Below are positions 2,970-54,470 of a stretch of 64,000 nucleotides of DNA, in pieces. The position numbers and the translations under genes are program-made. Where the stretch lies: the NCBI GenBank assembly GCA_964408995.1, contig CAYPBP010000003.1, positions 14,803 to 78,802 of the forward strand, read 5' to 3'. Position 1 is the stretch's first letter; every line of letters starts with the position of its first letter. The notes beneath the pieces were generated by a model. The model had not been told where the DNA came from and did no database searches. It was given only the letters and a program-made list of their open reading frames with translations. This DNA is from an uncultured Gammaproteobacteria bacterium. Lineage in GTDB: Bacteria > Patescibacteriota > Microgenomatia > UBA12405.

Positions 2970-3242
2970 AATTTTATTTTTTAATTTTTAACAAATAATC
3001 TCGCATTAGCGGGATTTCTATATATAGAAACACTAAAAATCCCCGCGGGGAGCGGGGATTTGTAAGTTTAATAAAATTGTTTTCAGGCGGCCAAAAACCC
3101 CGCGGATTTGACAGCCACGGTATGTCGATGGTTTAAAATATTTATTTTTAATTTCATTTTATTTTGTTTAAGTAAATATATCCTTATAATTTAGGATAAT
3201 CTGTTCCGCTACGCGGAACAGATCTTTAATAAAACTTACTTA

Positions 3243-3320
3243 TGGGGTGGTATACCGGACTTGAACCGGCAACCTCAGCTTTCACAGAGCTGCGCTCTAA
3301 CCAATTGAGCTAATACCACC
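3243..3320 (-). tRNA. tRNA-His (anticodon GTG) with encoded G-1 and 3' CCA
   Basis: Cloverleaf readable by eye: acceptor GTGGTAT/ATACCAC, D-arm GCTC-AATTGGTTA-GAGC, anticodon loop CTGTGAA, T-loop TTCAAGT, discriminator C, extra 5' G. Confidence 0.85.
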
Positions 3321-3580
3321 ATATATTTGGTTAATATGGTCTAACCAATTGACCTGCCCGCAGTTCCTAAGCAACAGCTTTTGCAGGCGGGGCTAATACC
3401 ACCATGTATTGTTAATTATATCTGATTATTTTGCCTTGCGGTTGCGGGTAATTTTGGTATAAAAAACCCGCCGGTTGGCGGGAAACAGACATGTTTAAAC
3501 CACCAACCTTAAAAGTTAGTGTGATGATGGTTTGAGATTAAACATGTTTTAATCATTGGTGGTATTGTATCATAAATAGT

Positions 3581-8574: not shown

Positions 8575-8935
8575 TGAAATGATAGTAAAAAACTATGGTA
8601 TAAGTTTTGGTATAAATGGGAGTTTTTTTATATTTTTGAGTATTATTTTTGTTCTATTGTTTTTAGTTTTAACTTTAAAGGAATGGGGCGGTCCCGCCAA
8701 AAGTTTCGCCCACCGACAGCGTTGCAGTCTTGGCGGGCAAGCATTTAGGCGGGCAGGTTTTGGTCTAATTTTTATTGGTGGTTTTTTGAATTTAATTGAA
8801 AGAATGGTTTTGGGATATGTCAGAGATTATTGGAATTTTTTGGGATTGGGACTTTACAATAATATTAATGATTGGATAATTGGAGTAGGAGTATTAATTT
8901 GTTTAATAAATCTTTTATGCAAGAAGTCAAAATAA
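8501..8935 (+). CDS. lspA: lipoprotein signal peptidase II, carrying an in-frame GC-rich insertion (8688-8765)
   Basis: NYGISFGING (N.GaAFG box) and GGFLNLIERMVLGYVRDYWNF (GG..N..DR / VvDF box); start ambiguous, overlaps the dksA-like gene in another frame. Confidence 0.6.
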   Translation: MTLIDWLLNQTQLLVSSVAKKANLSEMIVKNYGISFGINGSFFIFLSIIFVLLFLVLTLKEWGGPAKSFAHRQRCSLGGQAFRRAGFGLIFIGGFLNLIERMVLGYVRDYWNFLGLGLYNNINDWIIGVGVLICLINLLCKKSK

Positions 8936-9606: not shown

Positions 9607-10450
9607 AATATTAAAAACAATAGATTCTAATTTATTATTAGGATTGTTAGTTTTATTTTTATTATTATTTTTAATTTTATTGAGTTTTGCTCTCCACAGA
9701 GATAAGGATGAAAAGATAGATCATAAATTAGGTATACTGGCCAATGATGGAATGGCTTTGGTGTCGATTTCCAAAGATAGAAAAATGATTAATGTTTTGA
9801 ATTTGGATAAAGAAACTGAAGTTTGGATACCAGGTGGAATGTCTTGGTATAAAAATACTAAAGTAAAAAATATATTAGAACAGGAAAAAAAGATAACTTT
9901 GGCAAAAGATGTTTTTTGGTATAATTTTGGTTTTTTTGTGGATAAAGTTTTGATTTTAGAGTCGGTTGATGACTGGAGAGATAATTTTGTTTTAATTAAA
10001 AATTTGGGTCCTTTTAATTGGATTTGGTATAAATTTAATTACGGAAAGATGTTGTTAAATCCGGCTAAAATAGCTGGAAAATTAGATGAAAAACATTCTA
10101 CTTTAGATGAAATAATGGTGAGAGATTTTTCTGAAAGTAAATTGAATTATGAAGAATTAAGATTATCGGTTTTTAACTGTACTAATCAGAGTGGAATGGC
10201 TGCTTTTATATCAAAAAGATTAGAATGGTCAGGTTTTTCGGTAATATCAGCTGATAATAATGATGAAAAAATTGAAAAATGTTTAGTTATCTATGGTAAT
10301 AAAACTGATCTAAGTTATGGTTTCAGAATGGTTAATAAACTTTTTGATTGTGATAAAAAATATAATGAAAATTTAAATGAAAATGAATTAGAATTATATT
10401 TTGGAGATAGTTTAGCTTCAATGATAAAATACTCTAGTTATTCAAAATAA
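9593..10450 (+). CDS. LytR-CpsA-Psr (LCP) family protein with LytR_C-like C-terminal domain
   Basis: N-terminal TM, LCP-like core (LVSISKDRKMINVLNLDKETEVWIPGG), C-terminal CTNQSGMAAFISKRLEWSGFSV. Confidence 0.45.
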   Translation: MRNYKILKTIDSNLLLGLLVLFLLLFLILLSFALHRDKDEKIDHKLGILANDGMALVSISKDRKMINVLNLDKETEVWIPGGMSWYKNTKVKNILEQEKKITLAKDVFWYNFGFFVDKVLILESVDDWRDNFVLIKNLGPFNWIWYKFNYGKMLLNPAKIAGKLDEKHSTLDEIMVRDFSESKLNYEELRLSVFNCTNQSGMAAFISKRLEWSGFSVISADNNDEKIEKCLVIYGNKTDLSYGFRMVNKLFDCDKKYNENLNENELELYFGDSLASMIKYSSYSK

Positions 10451-31699: not shown

Positions 31700-32260
31700 T
31701 CAGATCTCAGTTATTTTAGATATTTCAGTAAATATTTTAGGAATGAGAGAATCGATTATTATTTTTTCTTCTGAGGTAAAAGGTAGTAAAACATAGTCTT
31801 CAACTGGAATATTATCTGAAGCTTTACTAATACCAACCCTGATTCTATTAAACTGTTGAGTGTTTAAGTTTTCAATAATCGATTTAATACCATTATGACC
31901 AGCTGGTCCTCTATCAAATTGAATTTTAAAATCCCCTACAGGTAAATCTAAATCATCATGGATAATATAAATATCTTGGGGAGAAATTTTATAGAATTTG
32001 GTAATTTTTTGGACAGATAGACCGGAGTTGTTCATATATTCGGTAGTAATGCCGATTAAAATCTTATTGTTGAATTTTGTAGAGACGCCAGATCTGGCGT
32101 CTCTACATGGAAGTTCCGAAAGTTGGGCTGATAATTTAGGAATTTTTTTCAATTCCAAATTTTGTTTTTTTAAAAAATCAATAACAATTTTTTGACCCAA
32201 ATTATGACGAGTGTTTTCATATTTTTTATCTGGATTACCAAGACCAATAATTAATTTCAT
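31700..32260 (-). CDS. pth: peptidyl-tRNA hydrolase with an in-frame palindromic insertion (32079-32106)
   Basis: MKLIIGLGNPDKKYENTRHNLG, HDDLDLPVG, GHNGIKSI Pth motifs; extra ~11 aa (PCRDARSGVST) relative to E. coli Pth is encoded by gtagagacgccagatctggcgtctctac. Confidence 0.85.
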   Translation of the reverse strand: MKLIIGLGNPDKKYENTRHNLGQKIVIDFLKKQNLELKKIPKLSAQLSELPCRDARSGVSTKFNNKILIGITTEYMNNSGLSVQKITKFYKISPQDIYIIHDDLDLPVGDFKIQFDRGPAGHNGIKSIIENLNTQQFNRIRVGISKASDNIPVEDYVLLPFTSEEKIIIDSLIPKIFTEISKITEI

Positions 32261-32288
32261 ATCTTTATTTTAACAGGTCTAATAATAT

Positions 32289-32318
32289 AGATACGCCCCG
32301 CAGCTGCGGGGCGTATCT
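32289..32318. repeat. perfect 30-bp GC-rich palindrome (AGATACGCCCCGCAGCTGCGGGGCGTATCT) between ligA and pth
   Basis: Self-complementary by eye; member of the CCCCGC-N4-GCGGGG hairpin family. Confidence 0.8.
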
Positions 32319-32430
32319 AATAAATTATCTATTAAGACACTATTTTATATATATAGATACTATATGATATAAAATGATTCCCTAAGGATAGGGAAAAGTT
32401 AGAAAAGTGGTCTTTTTAGCACTGTTGCTA

Positions 32431-34422
32431 CTAGACTGCTAATGATTCAAACTCTACTTCTGAAATTATTTTTGTGCCGAACTTTTGAGCATTTAAAAAT
32501 TTACTAGAATTTGATTGAGTTTCATTAGTAATTAAATAGTCAGTATTTTTAGAAACAGATGAAACAACTTGTCCGCCAAGAGAAATAAGTTGATCTTCTA
32601 TTTCTTTTCGAGGACGACTTAAATTTCCAGTAATGGCAAATGTAAGGTTGTTTAATTTAAAATTTCCAATTTCTAATTTCGAATCTTTAATTGTGACTTG
32701 AGAAAAAATAGATTCTAACCATTCTTTTCGAGCATCAATCCCCTCCTTTATTTTTTTAGCTAAAGTTATTTGAAAACCGGGAAGTGATTCTAATTTATTA
32801 ACAGTTAAATCCAAAATTTTTTCTTTGGTATCGAAAGCGGCGCTAATTAATTGTTGAATTCGTTTACCACTAAAATTAGGGATGCTGGCAGCGGTCAGAA
32901 TTTGTTTTAAAGTTAGATTTTTTTTATCTTGAATTTGTTTAATAATATTTTGACCTGATTTTTGACCAAGTCCAGCTAGATTAATAAAATTATCGATTGT
33001 AAGTTTATAAAAATCACCAGGAAGTCTAATTAAATTGGCTTGATGGAGTTTTTCAATGGTTTTGTCAGAGATGCCTTTGATTTCCAAAACGTCACAAAAG
33101 AGTTTTAGGGATCCAAGAATTTGGGCGGGACAGTTTTGAAGGTTAGGACATTTTAAAAATTTGGATTGGACGATTAATAAGGCTCCACAAGAAGGACAAT
33201 TGGTTGGAGCAATGATATGACCTGTGGTTACTTTATTAACAACATGATCTATATGAGGAATAACATCACCACGGCGACTGATTTCGACAATGTCATTAAT
33301 ATTAATATTTTTTTCTTTAATTAAATCGTAGTTGGCTAGAGAGGCAAAAGTAATGATAGCTCCAGAGATTTCAATTGGATCGACTTGGGCTACCGGAGTA
33401 ATCATACCAAGTGGCCCAACTTGCCAATCAATTGAGGCAATTCTGGTTTGACTAGTTCTGGCGGGAAATTTGTAAGCAATCTGACCTTTTGGTCGATTAT
33501 TCTTTACACCCAACTGGTGTTGAATTTTTTGATCATTAATTTTGATAACTAAACCATCTATTTCAAATGGATAACTAAGACGAGTTTCAATTAAGAATTT
33601 TTGATAAATTTCTTCAATTTGATCAAAGTTTTGACAAACAAAAGTTTCAACAGCAGTGAAACCAAGCGATTTTAAAAGATTTATTTTATCTAGCTCTGTA
33701 GAGACGTTCTGCAGAACGTCTCTACAGAATAAATCAACAGAAATAAGATAGCAGTATTCGCTGAATTTTCCATCTAATCTTTGAGAAATACCTGAAACAG
33801 CGTTTCGCGAATTACTGTAGAAATCCTCTGTCCCTCCCGCAGCTGCGGGAGGGACATCTCCCTTAACAGGGCGACTTTTTATAATAGAATTTAATTTTTG
33901 GAAATCTTGTTCTAACATAACAATTTCACAACGAATTGAGCCAGTAAAATCATCTTTAAATTTAGGGACAAAGTTTTTCATTTTAACTACATTTTGAGTT
34001 ATGACATCTCCTATTTGACCATCACCTCTGGTGATGGCTTCGACAAATTGACCATTTTGATAAATCATTTCTAAAGAAATACCGTCACATTTTGGTTGGA
34101 CAATAAATTCAGTATTAGTAGGGATTTTTTTTAATTCAAAATAATGGATGAGATCTTTTATATTATTCACTTTGTTTTGAGAGCCCATGGGCATGGAATG
34201 CTTTTTTTTATCAAAACCAGTGTTGAAGTTTTTATGACCAGCTTTGGTAAAAATCCTGTGATAAGGCATTTTTTGACGCAAAATCTCTTCGAGAGTGTCG
34301 TAAGTGGCATCAGACATAATTGGTTTGCCACTGGTGTAATAGACTTTTTTAGCTTCCATTAAAAGCTCGCCAAGTTTTTCGGGAGTGATGGTTTGAAGGT
34401 CGATAGAATCGAGAGTGATCAT
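32431..34422 (-). CDS. ligA: NAD-dependent DNA ligase with two in-frame palindromic insertions
   Basis: KCDG adenylation motif, OB, Zn-finger (CPSCGALL), HhH and BRCT regions; insertions at 33697-33728 and 33828-33876. Confidence 0.9.
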   Translation of the reverse strand: MITLDSIDLQTITPEKLGELLMEAKKVYYTSGKPIMSDATYDTLEEILRQKMPYHRIFTKAGHKNFNTGFDKKKHSMPMGSQNKVNNIKDLIHYFELKKIPTNTEFIVQPKCDGISLEMIYQNGQFVEAITRGDGQIGDVITQNVVKMKNFVPKFKDDFTGSIRCEIVMLEQDFQKLNSIIKSRPVKGDVPPAAAGGTEDFYSNSRNAVSGISQRLDGKFSEYCYLISVDLFCRDVLQNVSTELDKINLLKSLGFTAVETFVCQNFDQIEEIYQKFLIETRLSYPFEIDGLVIKINDQKIQHQLGVKNNRPKGQIAYKFPARTSQTRIASIDWQVGPLGMITPVAQVDPIEISGAIITFASLANYDLIKEKNININDIVEISRRGDVIPHIDHVVNKVTTGHIIAPTNCPSCGALLIVQSKFLKCPNLQNCPAQILGSLKLFCDVLEIKGISDKTIEKLHQANLIRLPGDFYKLTIDNFINLAGLGQKSGQNIIKQIQDKKNLTLKQILTAASIPNFSGKRIQQLISAAFDTKEKILDLTVNKLESLPGFQITLAKKIKEGIDARKEWLESIFSQVTIKDSKLEIGNFKLNNLTFAITGNLSRPRKEIEDQLISLGGQVVSSVSKNTDYLITNETQSNSSKFLNAQKFGTKIISEVEFESLAV

Positions 34423-36122: not shown

Positions 36123-36187
36123 CTAAGAAGGATTATAACACTTTTTTGAAAATTGATAAGGGGAAAGTGCGGGAATTAAAGCTTCCT

Positions 36188-36296
36188 GTTCACCCGCAAT
36201 TGCGGATGAACTTCCTCCCTTAAAAAAGGAGAAAATAAAATTCTCCCTTTGTTAAGGGGAGATGTCGATCCCGCCGTTGCGGGAGAGACAGAGAGG
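36188..36296. repeat. cluster of four GC-rich hairpin repeats
   Basis: ccgcaattgcgg; cctcccttaaaaaaggag; tctccctttgttaaggggaga; tcccgccgttgcggga. Confidence 0.7.
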
Positions 36297-36298
36297 TT

Positions 36299-36943
36299 TT
36301 AACTTAGAAATATATAGTCTAAAGCGCTTTTGGGATCGACGTTGGCATTTATCATTTGAATAGCTTTGATTATTTTTTCAATAGTTTCTTTGGTCTTTAA
36401 ATTTGGTTTTTGAATGAGTTCCTGCTGATAAAGATAAAGTTCATTTTCGAGCATGGGTAAAATTTCTTCTTTGTTTTTGCCTAATTTTTCGGATAAAGTT
36501 AAGTCTTTAGTTAAGTTGCCGGTGATTTCAATTTGTTTTTTATTTTTGTGTGAGTCGTGCCTCGCCCCTGCAAGTTTAACGGTTTGACATCGGGAAATAA
36601 TGGTTTGAAGAATACTTTTAGTTTTATTAGTGCTTAGAATAATATAATTATTTTCTCCTGGTTCTTCGAGATTTTTCAGTAAAGCATTTTGAGATTCATT
36701 GTTAAGGTTTTGAGCTTCTAAGATAATTATTACTTTGTTTTGATGAGAAAATGGTTTTTGGGAAAGAAAACTGTTGATTTGACGAACTTGATCTATCCCC
36801 CACCCTGAATTTTCATCTATTAATAAAATGTCGGGGTTATTTTGATTAAATTGATGGTCTAAAGTGGCGCAAATTTGATCAATTTTTTGATTGATGGAAT
36901 CTTTACTTTTACCGATAATTAAGGTTGATGGAAATAGATTCAT
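36299..36943 (-). CDS. holB: DNA polymerase III delta' subunit-like (short)
   Basis: ALLKNLEEPGENNYIIL and TIISRCQ motifs. Confidence 0.65.
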   Translation of the reverse strand: MNLFPSTLIIGKSKDSINQKIDQICATLDHQFNQNNPDILLIDENSGWGIDQVRQINSFLSQKPFSHQNKVIIILEAQNLNNESQNALLKNLEEPGENNYIILSTNKTKSILQTIISRCQTVKLAGARHDSHKNKKQIEITGNLTKDLTLSEKLGKNKEEILPMLENELYLYQQELIQKPNLKTKETIEKIIKAIQMINANVDPKSALDYIFLS

Positions 36944-41958: not shown

Positions 41959-42262
41959 GAAACCCAATCTCCCTCTACCCCCTCTTTCATCCTTCGACAA
42001 GCTCAGGACAAGCGCGAGGGGGGGGAAATCAAAACCTCTCTGTTCCCCGCATCCGCGGGGAACATCTCCCCTTAAAAAAGGGAGGGGTTAAAATATGTTT
42101 CTAACTAAAACCAATTTGTTGTAGTTTTAATATCTATTTGATAGAATATCTTTGATCTTGATGATCTTAAATAAGCTAAATCCCTCCAGTTCTGTAATAG
42201 GACCTGGAGGTTTTTTTTGGCCATAGGCCAATCAGTCTTTGACTGATATTATTTAATTAACT

Positions 42263-42808: not shown

Positions 42809-43621
42809 ATGGATTTTTTTGTTTTATTTATTATTTTTGTTTTAGGGTTGTGTTTTGGAAGTTTTGTAAATATGCTTGTCTATCGAACTGCTGTGCGGTA
42901 CGAAATTTTTAATTCGAAATTTGAAATTTTAAAAAATAAAGAAAAAAGATCGTTTTGTGATTATTGTGGTAAGCAATTAAATTGGTATGAAAATATTCCA
43001 GTCTTTTCTTGGTTGATACAAAAAGGTAAAACTAGTTGCTGTCATAAAAAATTGCCAGTCTCCTACCCTGTTGTGGAATTATTAACTGGTTTTTTATTTT
43101 TAGTTTATGGAATAATAATGGCGCCCCGCGGAGGCGGGGCGCCATTACAAATGGGATTAGGTTTAATCATTATTATTTTGTTGGTATTTAGTGCAGTGTT
43201 CGATTGGAAATATATGATTTTGCCTGATTTTTCAACAGGAATATTAGTCTCTAGTGCGCTGGTACTTTGGTTCTCTAGATATTTTGGTGAATGGAATTAT
43301 TTATTGTCGGCATTAGTGGCCAGTGGATTTTTGTTAATTTTAAATTTGATTACCAAAGGTGAAGGAATGGGTATGGGAGATGTAAAGTTGGCTGTTTTTA
43401 TGGGGTTATTTTTGGGATATCCTAATATAATAGTGGCTTTTTATGTGGCTTTTATACTTGGAGCAATTGTGGGAATTATTTTAATGATTTTCAAAAAAGC
43501 CAAGAAAAAAAGCCAGATTCCATTTGGTCCTTTTTTGATTTTAGGAACATTGGTGGCATGGATTTTTGGAAATAATATTATTAATTTAGTATTTAAAACC
43601 TACCCCTTTCCCCTCCCTTAA
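42809..43621 (+). CDS. pilD: prepilin peptidase (A24 family) with an in-frame palindromic insertion (43120-43143)
   Basis: N-terminal Cys tetrad (CDYCG...SCCHK), catalytic Asp regions (DFSTGIL, GMGMGDVKLAVFMG); APRGGGAP encoded by ggcgccccgcggaggcggggcgcc. Confidence 0.85.
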   Translation: MDFFVLFIIFVLGLCFGSFVNMLVYRTAVRYEIFNSKFEILKNKEKRSFCDYCGKQLNWYENIPVFSWLIQKGKTSCCHKKLPVSYPVVELLTGFLFLVYGIIMAPRGGGAPLQMGLGLIIIILLVFSAVFDWKYMILPDFSTGILVSSALVLWFSRYFGEWNYLLSALVASGFLLILNLITKGEGMGMGDVKLAVFMGLFLGYPNIIVAFYVAFILGAIVGIILMIFKKAKKKSQIPFGPFLILGTLVAWIFGNNIINLVFKTYPFPLP

Positions 43622-43653: not shown

Positions 43654-44103
43654 ATGAAAAAGTCTGGTTTTACATTAGTTGAGATTTTGATAGTCATTAC
43701 TATAATTGCTATTTTTGGAGTGATGGCAATTGGGATTTTTAATGCTAGTGGAATACAAAATAAGGCTAGAGACGCTCAAAGGAAGAAAGATTTAAATAGA
43801 ATTAAAGTGGCTTTTGAAGAATACTTTAATGACAATGGAAGTTATCCTGATGGAATTACTGGTTGGAATATAAGGTCGAATTGCGGAAAAAGTATTTCGA
43901 GTTTTTCATATTTAAATCCTTGGCCTTGTGACCCAACTGGTCAACCTTATAAAATAATTGTTGAAATTAAACCTAACAGATTTATGGTTGGAGCTATGTT
44001 GGAATATAAAAAGGATAAAGATATTATTAATGGTACTGGACTTGGTGTTAATTATGGAGTGTCAAGCTCAAATATTTTATGGAATAAATTTAATGTTTAT
44101 TAA
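43654..44103 (+). CDS. type IV pilin-like protein (short leader)
   Basis: MKKSG|FTLVEILIVITIIAIF. Confidence 0.8.
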   Translation: MKKSGFTLVEILIVITIIAIFGVMAIGIFNASGIQNKARDAQRKKDLNRIKVAFEEYFNDNGSYPDGITGWNIRSNCGKSISSFSYLNPWPCDPTGQPYKIIVEIKPNRFMVGAMLEYKKDKDIINGTGLGVNYGVSSSNILWNKFNVY

Positions 44104-44113
44104 TATAAATAAT

Positions 44114-44623
44114 ATGAAAAAAATAAAAAAGATTCAAAATTCAAATCAAAACCCACCCACCCTGCGGGTACCCTCCCTTGAAAAGGGAGGGATAAATTTT
44201 ATTGAAATTTTAATAATAATAGTATCGGTGTTTGTTTTATCTTTTATAACTTACAAACAATTTGCTTTAGCAAAGGCAAAATCTAGAGATTTACAAAGAA
44301 GATCGGATTTACACGAATTTTCTAAAGTAATTAAAATGTACCAAGTCGATTATGGAAAGTTGCCTAGTGATGAATTGATCAATAGTCTTTGGGGAACAAA
44401 GTTTGTTGATATAGATTATGTTTATGCAGCTTCAGTACCAAAAGAAAAATATGGAAATAAAGAATATTGTTATCAAGCTTCAGCTGATGGATCTTATTTT
44501 AAGATGATGGCTGAGTTTGAAAATAAAAAAGATGAAGATTGTAAAAAAGAGGGACAGTTGTGCGGTGGGATTAAATATTGTTATACTGATATTGTCTATA
44601 TTAATCCTGAACAAGAGAATTAG
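44114..44623 (+). CDS. type IV pilin-like protein with extended leader containing a hairpin repeat
   Basis: MKKIKKIQNSNQNPPTLRVPSLEKGG|INFIEILIIIV; the leader is encoded by acccacccaccctgcgggtaccctcccttgaaaagggaggg; the track ORF 43958 start is spurious upstream extension. Confidence 0.7.
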   Translation: MKKIKKIQNSNQNPPTLRVPSLEKGGINFIEILIIIVSVFVLSFITYKQFALAKAKSRDLQRRSDLHEFSKVIKMYQVDYGKLPSDELINSLWGTKFVDIDYVYAASVPKEKYGNKEYCYQASADGSYFKMMAEFENKKDEDCKKEGQLCGGIKYCYTDIVYINPEQEN

Positions 44624-46142: not shown

Positions 46143-46192
46143 TTTAAAACCTCTCTAAATCTCCCCTTAAAAAAGGGAGACTTTAAAAAAAT

Positions 46193-47193: not shown

Positions 47194-47614
47194 TAGAAAA
47201 ACCCCTCTAAATCTCCCCTTGACAAGGGAGACTTTAAATCAAAATAGGAAATTAAATGGTCAAAGTTTGATTGATGTAATTTTTTCAATAGGAATATTGG
47301 TTTTGGTTTTGACTGGAGTTTTGGTTTTGATTGTTAGTACTGCTAAACTTAAAACAATAGATTCAAAAAGAAGTAAAGCAGTTGAAATGTCTCAAAGATT
47401 GATTGAACAAGAAATTAAAAAAGCAAAAGATAACCCTTCTCTTTTTTGGACATTTCCAAAACTTCCTTACTCTGCTTCAACTGGTGGTTATAATTATGTT
47501 ATTAATTATGATTGTAATAGTGATAAAAGTAAGTGTAATGGTGTTTTTACTATATCTTGGGGTGATGGTGAATCGTTATCAGTTGAAAGACTTTTTTTGA
47601 AAACTGGAATATAA
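47186..47614 (+). CDS. pseudopilin-like protein with hairpin-encoded leader
   Basis: MNNRKTPLNLPLTRETLNQNRKLNG|QSLIDVIFSIGILVLVL (Asp at +5). Confidence 0.6.
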   Translation: MNNRKTPLNLPLTRETLNQNRKLNGQSLIDVIFSIGILVLVLTGVLVLIVSTAKLKTIDSKRSKAVEMSQRLIEQEIKKAKDNPSLFWTFPKLPYSASTGGYNYVINYDCNSDKSKCNGVFTISWGDGESLSVERLFLKTGI

Positions 47615-48240: not shown

Positions 48241-48505
48241 AATCCAATCTTCCCCTTTTTGATTCAATCTCCTCTTGTCCCGACAAGTCGGGACTTTCCC
48301 CTCTTTAACACGAGGGGAGATATAATTTAACTTTTCAATCTTCCCCTTTTTGATTCAATCTCCTCTTGTTGGCAAAGCCAATTTTCCCCTCTTTAACACG
48401 AGGGGAGATATAAATTATATTTTCAATCTTCCCCCTTTTTGATTCAATCTCCTCTTGTTGGCAAAGCCAACTTTCCCCTCTTTAACACGAGGGGAGATAT
48501 AATTT
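48241..48505. repeat. three tandem copies of an ~88-bp compound-hairpin unit (fourth partial copy at 56846-56908)
   Basis: Unit = tcaatcttcccctttttgattcaatctcctcttg + (gtcccgacaagtcgggac | ttggcaaagccaa) + ttttcccctctttaacacgaggggagatataa, contiguous with no spacers. Confidence 0.85.
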
Positions 48506-53660: not shown

Positions 53661-54470
53661 ATGAAAAATAAAAAAACAAACCCTCTGTCCCGACAAGTCG
53701 GGACATCTCCCTTGACAGGGCGAATTAATTCTAAAAGTGGGCAGGTGGCAGTTATTGTTTTGTTAGTTTCAGCAGTGGTTTTGACACTTGGATTATCTAC
53801 TTCTCGTAAATCAATTACTGATATTAAAGTCAATACTGATGAAGAATCATTAAAGAATGCTTTTAACATGGCTGAATCGGCTATTAATAACTATCTTGAC
53901 AGTGGTAGTCAAGTTTATACTGGCTCTGGTGATAATTATAGTGGTAATGTCACTAAAACAAATATAGGAGGTGCTAATAGTTTATCTTCTGAAGGTTTGG
54001 TTTCGCCCAACTCAAGTCAATTATTTTGGTTGGTTAACCATAATGCAAATGGTAGTATAGGGACTACTTATTATTCAGGAAATATTAATTCTATAAGTTC
54101 TAGTGAAAATAACGTGGCCTTAAAAATCGATTATTTTTATATTCAAGGTGGTGCTTATAAGGTTGATAGATATGCTTGCCAATATTTTGGTTTTAGTTCT
54201 ACTAAATCTTTAGGTTTCGATAGTCCTTGTTCTTCTTTTTCTCTAAATTATGTAAGTGGTAAAAAATCTTTATTACTTTCAATTACTCCTATTGGGTTGG
54301 CTACTAAATTAACTTTAAATGGAAGTTCTCCTTTTCCAGTTCAAGGAGAAGAATTGACTTCTGTGGGTACTGCTAATAATGGAGTTAAAACTCAAATTAA
54401 AGCTAGAAATTTGTATCAGATCCCTTCTTTTTTGACAGAAGCGGTGGTGGCTAGAAACATTATTAAGTAA
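53661..54470 (+). CDS. pilin-like / pilus-associated protein with hairpin-encoded leader
   Basis: MKNKKTNPLSRQVGTSPLTGRINSKSG|QVAVIVLLVSAVVL hydrophobic pilin-like N-terminus (no Glu at +5). Confidence 0.55.
   Translation: MKNKKTNPLSRQVGTSPLTGRINSKSGQVAVIVLLVSAVVLTLGLSTSRKSITDIKVNTDEESLKNAFNMAESAINNYLDSGSQVYTGSGDNYSGNVTKTNIGGANSLSSEGLVSPNSSQLFWLVNHNANGSIGTTYYSGNINSISSSENNVALKIDYFYIQGGAYKVDRYACQYFGFSSTKSLGFDSPCSSFSLNYVSGKKSLLLSITPIGLATKLTLNGSSPFPVQGEELTSVGTANNGVKTQIKARNLYQIPSFLTEAVVARNIIK

Follow-up and report, generated by a model that had tools for sequence, protein, structure and literature searches.

Palindromic repeats that are read in-frame within bacterial genes are already known from Rickettsia, from several bacteria rich in repetitive extragenic palindromic (REP) sequences and from cyanobacteria. 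REPs form GTAG- and CGTC-tagged super-families that go together with the transposase RayT (RAYT), as set out in passages of Di Nocera et al. 2013 (PMC3733652) and of Bertels and Rainey 2011 (PMC3116915). Passages of PMC3733652 also place the GTAG (or GTRG) tag at one end of the REP, outside the base pairing; report REPs read in-frame within genes of Opitutus terrae, Thauera and R. conorii, among which genes for replication and repair stand out, with a DNA ligase of O. terrae as one case; and equate RPE-4 and RPE-6, two short Rickettsia elements, with CGTC-type REPs. The in-frame Rickettsia palindromic elements (RPEs; Ogata et al. 2000) are summarised in parts of PMC10969869 and PMC3733652. Here we analyse a stretch of 64,000 nucleotides (the window) of contig CAYPBP010000003.1 (assembly GCA_964408995.1), whose GC-rich palindromes belong to several families of short repeats, at least two of them main ones (named F1 and F2), and are in part carried in-frame by the genes for peptidyl-tRNA hydrolase (pth), NAD-dependent DNA ligase (ligA) and prepilin peptidase (pilD). 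A first-pass annotation had likened these palindromes to RPEs, that is, to selfish hairpins tolerated as in-frame peptide insertions. The results presented below support such behaviour, with the refinement that the units are shorter than RPE-1 and that the elements are closer to REPs than to classic RPE-1.

Other small repeats bear comparison as well. The GC clusters of yeast mitochondria and the byp elements (of Magnusiomyces) are short GC-rich hairpins in AT-rich genomes that are tolerated in protein-coding genes, and byp elements are skipped by the ribosome. The small dispersed repeat (SDR) families of Elhai et al. 2008 (Genome Res 18:1484), which have eight consensus sequences, reportedly consist of a variable core able to form a hairpin, set between conserved flanks, and can lie inside genes. 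SDRs of heterocyst-forming cyanobacteria are cited in passages of PMC3116915 and PMC5861425 as mobile repeats of 21-27 nt, reported only in Nostocaceae.

The window has a GC content of 31% and belongs to the ultra-small genome of a member of Candidatus Shapirobacteria, of the Candidate Phyla Radiation (CPR, or Patescibacteria); the homologues of its LigA (n = 120) are given that name by their source databases, the best match sharing 79% identity. The window contains five perfect inverted repeats whose arms reach 14 bp or more, against 0.07 expected from dinucleotide shuffles (five against 0.23 for arms of at least 12 bp), and the single-strand folding z-scores of the palindromes range from -5.5 to -8. 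The quoted palindromes were found where the first-pass annotation had placed them, and the open reading frames (ORFs) of pth, ligA and pilD run uninterrupted across them. The inserts in these unrelated ORFs (one in pth, two in ligA, one in pilD) are in-frame and at positions compatible with the fold, all of them in loops with low pLDDT. One insert junction deduced from the reading frame is ...LPCRDARSGVSTK....

F1 is a palindrome of 28-30 bp in which the arms GTAGAGACG and CGTCTCTAC enclose a core of 10-11 nt; relatives also carry the variant GTAGGGrAC...GTyCCCTAC. Two copies lie in the window and 17 in 399 kb of Shapirobacteria DNA, a sample centred on ligA. The copy in pth, built as GTAGAGACG-CCAGATCTGG-CGTCTCTAC with T/A flanks, is translated as CRDARSGVST. 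That it adds about 11 residues to Pth, as had been proposed, is borne out by the orthologues: in alignments with PDB structures a gap of 9-11 residues faces ELPCRDARSGV, the palindrome is missing from 21 syntenic orthologues, and F1 was found in three of 120 Pth homologues, with a different core in each. In the AlphaFold (AF2) model of Pth the insert forms the turn of a beta-hairpin between strands 45-50 and 67-72, and this block has a pLDDT of 55, compared with a mean of 92 for the model.

A related locus, L254, carries F1 at the orthologous pth position (9839-9868), with 9-bp arms identical to those in the window. Its core (CCCCGCGGGG) is wholly unlike that of the window copy, both cores being self-complementary, and the outer bases are A..T in L254 versus T..A in the window, which is a complementary swap. 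This difference suggests replacement and not point mutation. The exact 28-mer of the pth palindrome, GTAGAGACGCCAGATCTGGCGTCTCTAC, is also present at one of the variable sites of ligA (site A, see below) in two other loci, L135 and L144, where it is read as VETPDLASL and not as CRDARSGVST. Thus, the same DNA is shared between non-orthologous sites of different genomes and is read there in different frames.

Variation in LigA was analysed in a set of 121 sequences (the window and 120 homologues), with loop lengths taken from alignment columns, and at the DNA level in codon alignments with 34 related ligA loci and their flanks (L121-L154) obtained from a metagenome scan. Three loops, which we name sites A, B and C, are polymorphic for the presence or absence of an insert, and 57 of the 121 sequences contain at least one. 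Site A, just before YSNSRNAVSG, is a linker of six residues in 66 sequences and is longer by five residues or more in 42. At site B the modal length is nine residues; 19 sequences, including that of the window, have 11, and 20 are longer by at least five. Site C, located before the KxDG motif, is empty in the window; it has its modal length of nine residues in 96 sequences and is at least five residues longer in 23. Each extra segment appears in the codon alignments as a GC-rich hairpin within an otherwise AT-rich gene, and one and the same loop hosts unrelated hairpin families in different lineages. L135 and L144, the ligA genes of which are 87% identical, both carry the core variant CATCATGATG in ligA, each at another site.

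Site A of the window is occupied by an F2 double hairpin, cctct-GTCCCTCCCGCAGCTGCGGGAGGGAC-ATCTCCCTTAACAGGGCGAC, made up of a perfect palindrome of 28 bp and another, small hairpin; its 51 nt correspond to 17 codons, and the loop measures 23 residues versus the modal six, an insertion of 17 residues. Site B is occupied by an F1 copy built as GTAGAGACG-TTCTGCAGAA-CGTCTCTAC, in which the symmetry extends to TCT/AGA and which is translated as CRDVLQNVST. This copy encodes about ten residues, yet its loop is only two residues above the mode (11 versus 9). Hence, of the two ligA additions predicted initially (about 13 and 18 residues), the one due to the double hairpin stood up and the one due to the F1 copy did not. 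The peptide CRDVLQNVST is common to ten listed LigA orthologues and other orthologues have other cores or frames; among the LigA homologues F1 is read as RD..VS in 15 and as VET..ASL in 14. PDB alignments of LigA show a gap facing the site A insert, which in the AlphaFold model (residues 185-199) lies between two helices and has a pLDDT below 50; site B forms the loop that connects strand 225-232 to helix 243-252. The inserts thus map to low-confidence loops. In the orthologues compared, the same residues were not seen without the palindrome, and most orthologues lack the segment altogether.

A fourth hot spot, site D, is found in the linker preceding the BRCT domain (about 32660-32710 of the window, residues 575-590; loci L125, L126, L130, L143 and L135). 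Four lineages have F1 at one exact codon of this site (aaT GTA GAG ACG), with four different cores. The alleles without F1, that of the window included, consist of AT-rich low-complexity or tandem-repeat sequence and are about equal in length. Between L135 and L144 a stretch of about 50 nt is replaced at site D. Insertions are also nested: at site A of L125 and L129 an F2 copy has been invaded by further small GC hairpins, which results in inserts of up to 36 residues.

The loop of PilD that contains a palindrome in the window holds a homologous element with complementary changes (GACGCCCCGCAGTGGCGGGGCGTC) in L126 and an F1 copy in L125, and is AT-rich and variable in the remaining orthologues. 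The pilD element has a CGCCCCGC/GCGGGGCG core in common with the intergenic palindrome located between pth and ligA. The GC-rich patch in lspA, which had been listed with the palindromes, is a repeat, being identical in 26 of 27 nt to a piece nested in the ligA insert of L129; as a palindrome it failed (z = -0.4). Comparison of LspA with solved structures gave no match, and the patch is only a putative insertion. Four intergenic clusters had been assigned to the same families as the intragenic copies. This holds for 36188-36296 and 41989-42089, which belong to the family of the ligA double hairpin; 32288-32319 shares only the pilD core, and the hairpin at 3037-3061 has the appearance of an ordinary terminator. 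The motifs are nevertheless not confined to the genes named above: besides the pth palindrome found in ligA of L135 and L144, F2 copies are both intergenic and intragenic, and F1 is present at 120 or more genome loci.

F2 is a double hairpin of 50-55 nt (cctct-GTyCCC..GGGrAC-ATCTCCCCTTrAnAAGGGAGA) with about nine copies in the window, and F3 is the second hairpin of F2 alone. When GC-rich islands of the 399 kb sample were clustered, F2/F3 formed the largest non-orthologous cluster, whose 18 members are distributed over spacers, ligA (sites A, B and C) and other ORFs. The positions of all these features are given in Table 1. The degenerate copy at 44148-44191 is regarded as intergenic because homologues of ORF 43958-44623 align only from residues 72-82 onwards.

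Table 1. Host genes and GC-rich elements in the window.
Feature	Position	Strand	Remarks
pth, peptidyl-tRNA hydrolase	31700-32260	minus	Host gene; Pfam PF01195, E = 6e-49
ligA, NAD-dependent DNA ligase	32431-34422	minus	Host gene; Pfam and PDB matches
pilD, prepilin peptidase	42809-43621	plus	Host gene; Pfam PF06750 and PF01478
F1 palindrome in pth, TGTAGAGACGCCAGATCTGGCGTCTCTACA	32078-32107		30-bp perfect palindrome; fold z = -8.0
F1 palindrome in ligA site B, TCTGTAGAGACGTTCTGCAGAACGTCTCTACAGA	33695-33728		34-bp perfect palindrome; fold z = -6.9
F2 double hairpin in ligA site A, TGTCCCTCCCGCAGCTGCGGGAGGGACA + ATCTCCCTTAACAGGGCGAC	33825-33875	plus	Antisense to ligA; fold z = -5.5
pilD palindrome, TAATGGCGCCCCGCGGAGGCGGGGCGCCATTA	43116-43147		14-bp-stem hairpin; fold z = -7.2; read MAPRGGGAPL
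Palindrome TAGATACGCCCCGCAGCTGCGGGGCGTATCTA	32288-32319		32-bp perfect palindrome; intergenic, between pth and ligA
GC-rich patch in lspA	8676-8765	plus	Repeat; no clean hairpin (fold z = -0.4)
F2-like copy	36184-36233	plus	First of inverted intergenic pair
F2 copy	36241-36300	minus	Second of inverted intergenic pair
F2 copy	42031-42087	plus	Intergenic; fold z = -5.8
Degenerate F2-like copy	44148-44191	plus	Intergenic
F3 copy (aaaacctctctaa-ATCTCCCCTTAAAAAAGGGAGAC)	46146-46181	plus	Directly upstream of pilin-like gene
F3 copy	47197-47232	plus	Upstream of pilin-like gene
F2-like copy	48267-48319	plus	Intergenic
F2 copy	53678-53723	plus	Tail ATCTCCCTTGACAGGGCGA nearly identical to that of the ligA copy; at or before start of ORF 53661-54470

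The intergenic F2/F3 copies of the pilin-gene region (42031-42087, 46146-46181, 47197-47232, 48267-48319 and 53678-53723) all have the same orientation as the plus-strand genes downstream of them, and at two of the copies in this region the 3' arm GGGAGA is located about 12 nt ahead of an ATG. These copies might double as translation-initiation or processing signals. The window contains further GC hairpins besides F1, F2 and F3, of the GGCGCCCCGC... and GGGCG...CGCCC types, and several GC hairpins that are followed by T-runs resemble terminators. An Rfam scan of the window returned two tRNAs and no other family. The tRNA-His gene (3243-3319, minus strand) is adjoined at 3320-3410 by a copy of its own first ~28 nt, which is split by a 40-nt GC hairpin, CCTGCCCGCAGTTCCTAAGCAACAGCTTTTGCAGGCGGGG; this interrupted duplicate may be what is left of an integration site, or a further case of hairpin insertion.

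F1 extends far beyond Shapirobacteria. A scan with one genome per species yielded at least 120 loci, which among the matches listed come from about ten phyla: Cyanobacteria (mainly Nostocales), Bacteroidota, Chloroflexota, Acidobacteriota and Planctomycetota, together with Omnitrophota, Ignavibacteriales, Cloacimonadota, Binatia, Methylococcales and one Patescibacteria genome. F1 is also present in 99 viral contigs (IMG/VR, L155-L253). Related phages have two inverted F1 copies 1856 nt apart around a capsid gene region (for example at 559-587 and 2415-2443 of L158); a composite element of 1.86 kb bounded by inverted F1 was considered and rejected, since the enclosed DNA is the phage capsid gene and the F1 hairpins lie in its flanking spacers. 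Many of the cyanobacterial F1 copies (Nostoc loci L008, L014, L020, L027, L073, L102, L109 and L117) have common flanks, ga(a/t)ccct on the left and attc on the right, which suggests that cyanobacterial F1 is nested in a larger repeated unit.

The arms of F1 are constant, whereas 144 copies have 90 different cores, nearly all of them self-complementary. Of the ten-nt cores, 77 out of 109 are perfectly palindromic, and the central pair is complementary in 88% of cases versus 25% by chance. The GTAG of F1 pairs with the CTAC of the opposite end, so that it belongs to the stem on both strands, and pairing often continues for another 1-3 nt. On either strand, one of the frames of F1 contains a TAG, while the other two are free of stops and are both used; none of the intact genes examined (ligA, pth and pilD) uses the frame with TAG as its reading frame.

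A candidate partner of F1 came from clustering the ORFs around its genome loci, which revealed one family located at the palindrome in four Bacteroidota loci (L016, L017, L056 and L081). In L017 the RayT gene is flanked by two F1 copies, which is the arrangement of a REPtron; in L016, L056 and L081 F1 lies inside the RayT gene, and in L001 a RayT fragment detected by tblastn adjoins an F1 copy. The F1-linked proteins match NCBIfam NF047646, REP-associated tyrosine transposase (E = 1e-15, below the equivalog cut-off), match Pfam Y1_Tnp weakly, and match the structure of E. coli TnpA-REP (PDB 4er8); homologues are named 'REP element-mobilizing transposase RayT' by JGI. Among the top 120 homologues, 85 (within P0123-P0239) contain F1 in-frame inside RayT itself, read as RRDAMHCVST or VETQCIASL, at about residues 100-135, between the HuH and Tyr motifs; all of the 120 that have an organism name are Bacteroidota. 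Together, the RayT matches, the REPtron layout and the presence of F1 within RayT ORFs lead to the conclusion that F1 is a REP-type element and that a RayT (Y1/HuH) transposase is its partner in Bacteroidota; the GTAG super-family of PMC3733652 is consistent with this. RayT was not found beside F1 in the cyanobacterial or viral loci.

Like REPs with their RayT, F1 copies are palindromes in the size range of 20-40 bp that end in GTAG and have many sub-variants differing by complementary stem changes; they are found in phyla as distant from each other as Cyanobacteria, Chloroflexi and Planctomycetes, they flank a RayT gene (in L017), and some of them lie in-frame within genes. There are differences as well. 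The GTAG of F1 is paired with CTAC, whereas the REP tag is unpaired and present at one end; F1 is a loop-less perfect palindrome, whereas classical REPs are imperfect; and the 9-bp arms of F1 are kept across phyla, whereas most REP families are bound to a species or genus. In the REP system RayT recognises and cuts the single-stranded repeat at its GTAG foot. REPs are mainly extragenic and mostly downstream of ORFs, in contrast to the mostly intragenic F1 copies of our ligA-centred Shapirobacteria sample, in which RayT was not found. F2 and F3 have neither a GTAG nor a CGTC tag. F1 is not printed in the supplements of PMC3733652, of which the GTAG-12 family is a possible counterpart.

With RPEs the elements have in common that they are selfish palindromic repeats in the reduced AT-rich genome of a host-dependent bacterium, and that they lie in-frame in unrelated housekeeping genes as extra peptides compatible with the fold. 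RPEs of the RPE-1 type, however, are about 100-150 bp long and have a conserved peptide of their own, whereas here the units are of 28-55 bp and the same F1 DNA is used in two frames (CRD..VST or VET..ASL); moreover, RPEs, compared here by description and not by sequence, are from another phylum. A miniature inverted-repeat transposable element (MITE) has terminal inverted repeats and a target-site duplication and derives from a parent insertion sequence; here the whole element is an inverted repeat, no clean empty site was found from which a target-site duplication could be read, and no parent insertion sequence was seen. By description, SDRs resemble F1 in being very small repeats of Nostocales, where F1 is abundant, and F1 may correspond to one of their families; they differ in that F1 extends, among the matches listed, to about ten phyla and also to viral contigs. 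GC clusters and byp elements are organellar and unrelated in sequence, and for the present elements the constraints on frame and stops indicate normal translation. Literature searches with 9-mers and 11-mers of F1 returned only primer coincidences. Our search of the literature, an incomplete one, found nothing that joins REP, RAYT or REPIN with Patescibacteria, and a 2024 review of MITEs is silent on Patescibacteria; this agrees with the first-pass annotation, which was aware of no such elements in CPR-type genomes.

We consider it probable that several families of tiny GC-rich hairpin repeats colonise the Shapirobacteria genome as selfish DNA of the REP/MITE type and are kept in-frame in loops. 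The units are repetitive, orthologues differ in whether they carry them, the same DNA recurs across genes, genomes and frames, and intragenic copies are confined to loops; in Bacteroidota there is also the link to RayT. Copies would land, or be exchanged, anywhere in the genome, and selection would retain only those that spare the gene, by keeping the frame, avoiding the frame with the stop and falling in a surface loop. The retained intragenic copies would be translated as short, mostly disordered peptides, presumably neutral ones, and mobilisation in Shapirobacteria may proceed as a single-stranded hairpin through a RayT-like enzyme acting in trans.

Several observations weigh against colonisation by REP/MITE-type DNA. 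Searches of the window and of 425 kb of Shapirobacteria DNA (L060, L121-L154) by tblastn and by hidden Markov models built from 4 and 120 sequences found no RayT or IS200-like gene, and ten further ORFs of the window have no mobile-element domain. There is no clean pair of an empty and a filled site: L135 versus L144, and the window versus L254, show replacement of a larger stretch or of the whole core, and such differences between close relatives suggest exchange or renewal at existing F1 copies over simple insertion. The share of F1-type copies within long ORFs (15 of the 17 in the Shapirobacteria sample) is biased, the sample being centred on ligA. Translation through the inserts is deduced from intact reading frames. 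Finally, the symmetry of F1 continues through its centre, which is unseen in classical REPs and is not explained by hairpin stability, because a hairpin needs a loop; template switching, or a fold-back step during propagation, may be its source. There is also a more far-reaching proposal. F1 would be a distinct pan-bacterial and viral class of ultra-small loop-less palindromes (28-30 bp), with invariant 9-bp arms and with cores that are freely exchanged yet always self-complementary, propagated or renewed at existing copies on its own template by fold-back or strand-swap and habitually in-frame in its own RayT, which in CPR bacteria turns over in essential genes in the absence of a resident RayT, by means of another enzyme or in trans from host or phage. 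We hold this to be rather unlikely.

The central symmetry bears equally on the idea that the palindromes are not mobile but arise locally through errors of the host's own replication, in which template switching or fold-back priming at quasi-palindromes perfects and extends imperfect inverted repeats. Such errors would fit the 77 of 109 perfect cores, whose symmetry spans the would-be loop, the complementary bases, different from copy to copy, by which this symmetry is extended at the ends (TCT/AGA in ligA; T/A in the window pth versus A/T in L254), the partial duplications beside some copies (L019, L045, L062, L079 and L097) and the about equal length of site D alleles with and without F1. 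However, origin de novo cannot give rise to 9-bp arms (GTAGAGACG) that are identical between viral contigs and about ten phyla, does not account for a 28-mer that one genome carries in pth and another in ligA, and leaves the link to the RayT gene unexplained. We therefore regard it as improbable as the sole cause, and replication errors may act alongside mobility as a secondary force that keeps copies symmetric. Retention for use by the host, be it as RNA pause sites, stabilisers, processing hairpins, terminators or ribosome-binding-site modules, or as adaptive peptides of surface loops, is given an equally small chance. The sense orientation of the intergenic F2/F3 copies upstream of plus-strand pilin-like genes, the terminator-like hairpins with T-runs and the repeated striking of the same loops speak for it, and passages of PMC3733652 hold many REPs to act as RNA elements; some of the intergenic copies may serve the host. 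Yet each insert is missing from most LigA, Pth and PilD orthologues, one DNA is read in two frames to give unrelated peptides, the insert peptides are predicted to be disordered, and the F2 copy of ligA is antisense to that gene.

It is least probable, to a degree that we regard as very slight, that the segments are untranslated, being removed from the mRNA or bypassed by the ribosome in the manner of mini-introns or byp elements, or that they are assembly artefacts. The resemblance of GC-rich hairpins in an AT-rich genome to mitochondrial GC clusters and byp elements invites this reading, and introns are known in CPR genomes according to a part of the preprint bioRxiv 10.1101/2025.07.03.662931. 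All intragenic copies are nevertheless in-frame and stop-free, the TAG frame of F1 is never used, insert lengths are whole codons, Rfam detects only the two tRNAs in the window, and the same inserts recur in independent assemblies (JGI, ENA, NCBI and Logan). Intein, intron, CRISPR and artefact readings were ruled out by size, by the constraints on frame and by this recurrence.

What is new in the colonisation of this genome by hairpin repeats is that REP- or RPE-like in-frame behaviour is extended to a CPR lineage. CPR genomes are regarded as streamlined. Repeated invasion of their essential genes, those for DNA ligase, Pth and prepilin peptidase, by selfish hairpins would be a second, independent case of the phenomenon seen in Rickettsia, and hairpin inserts would account for many odd lineage-specific insertions in CPR proteins, for which gene callers and pipelines for structure and phylogeny need to allow. 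The LigA loops include filled, empty and re-filled sites and so form a natural series in which REP-like movement and the tolerance of proteins can be followed. F1, with identical arms in about ten phyla, a RayT partner and a copy within the RayT gene, would be a handy system for studying the specificity of RayT and the spread of REPs between phyla.

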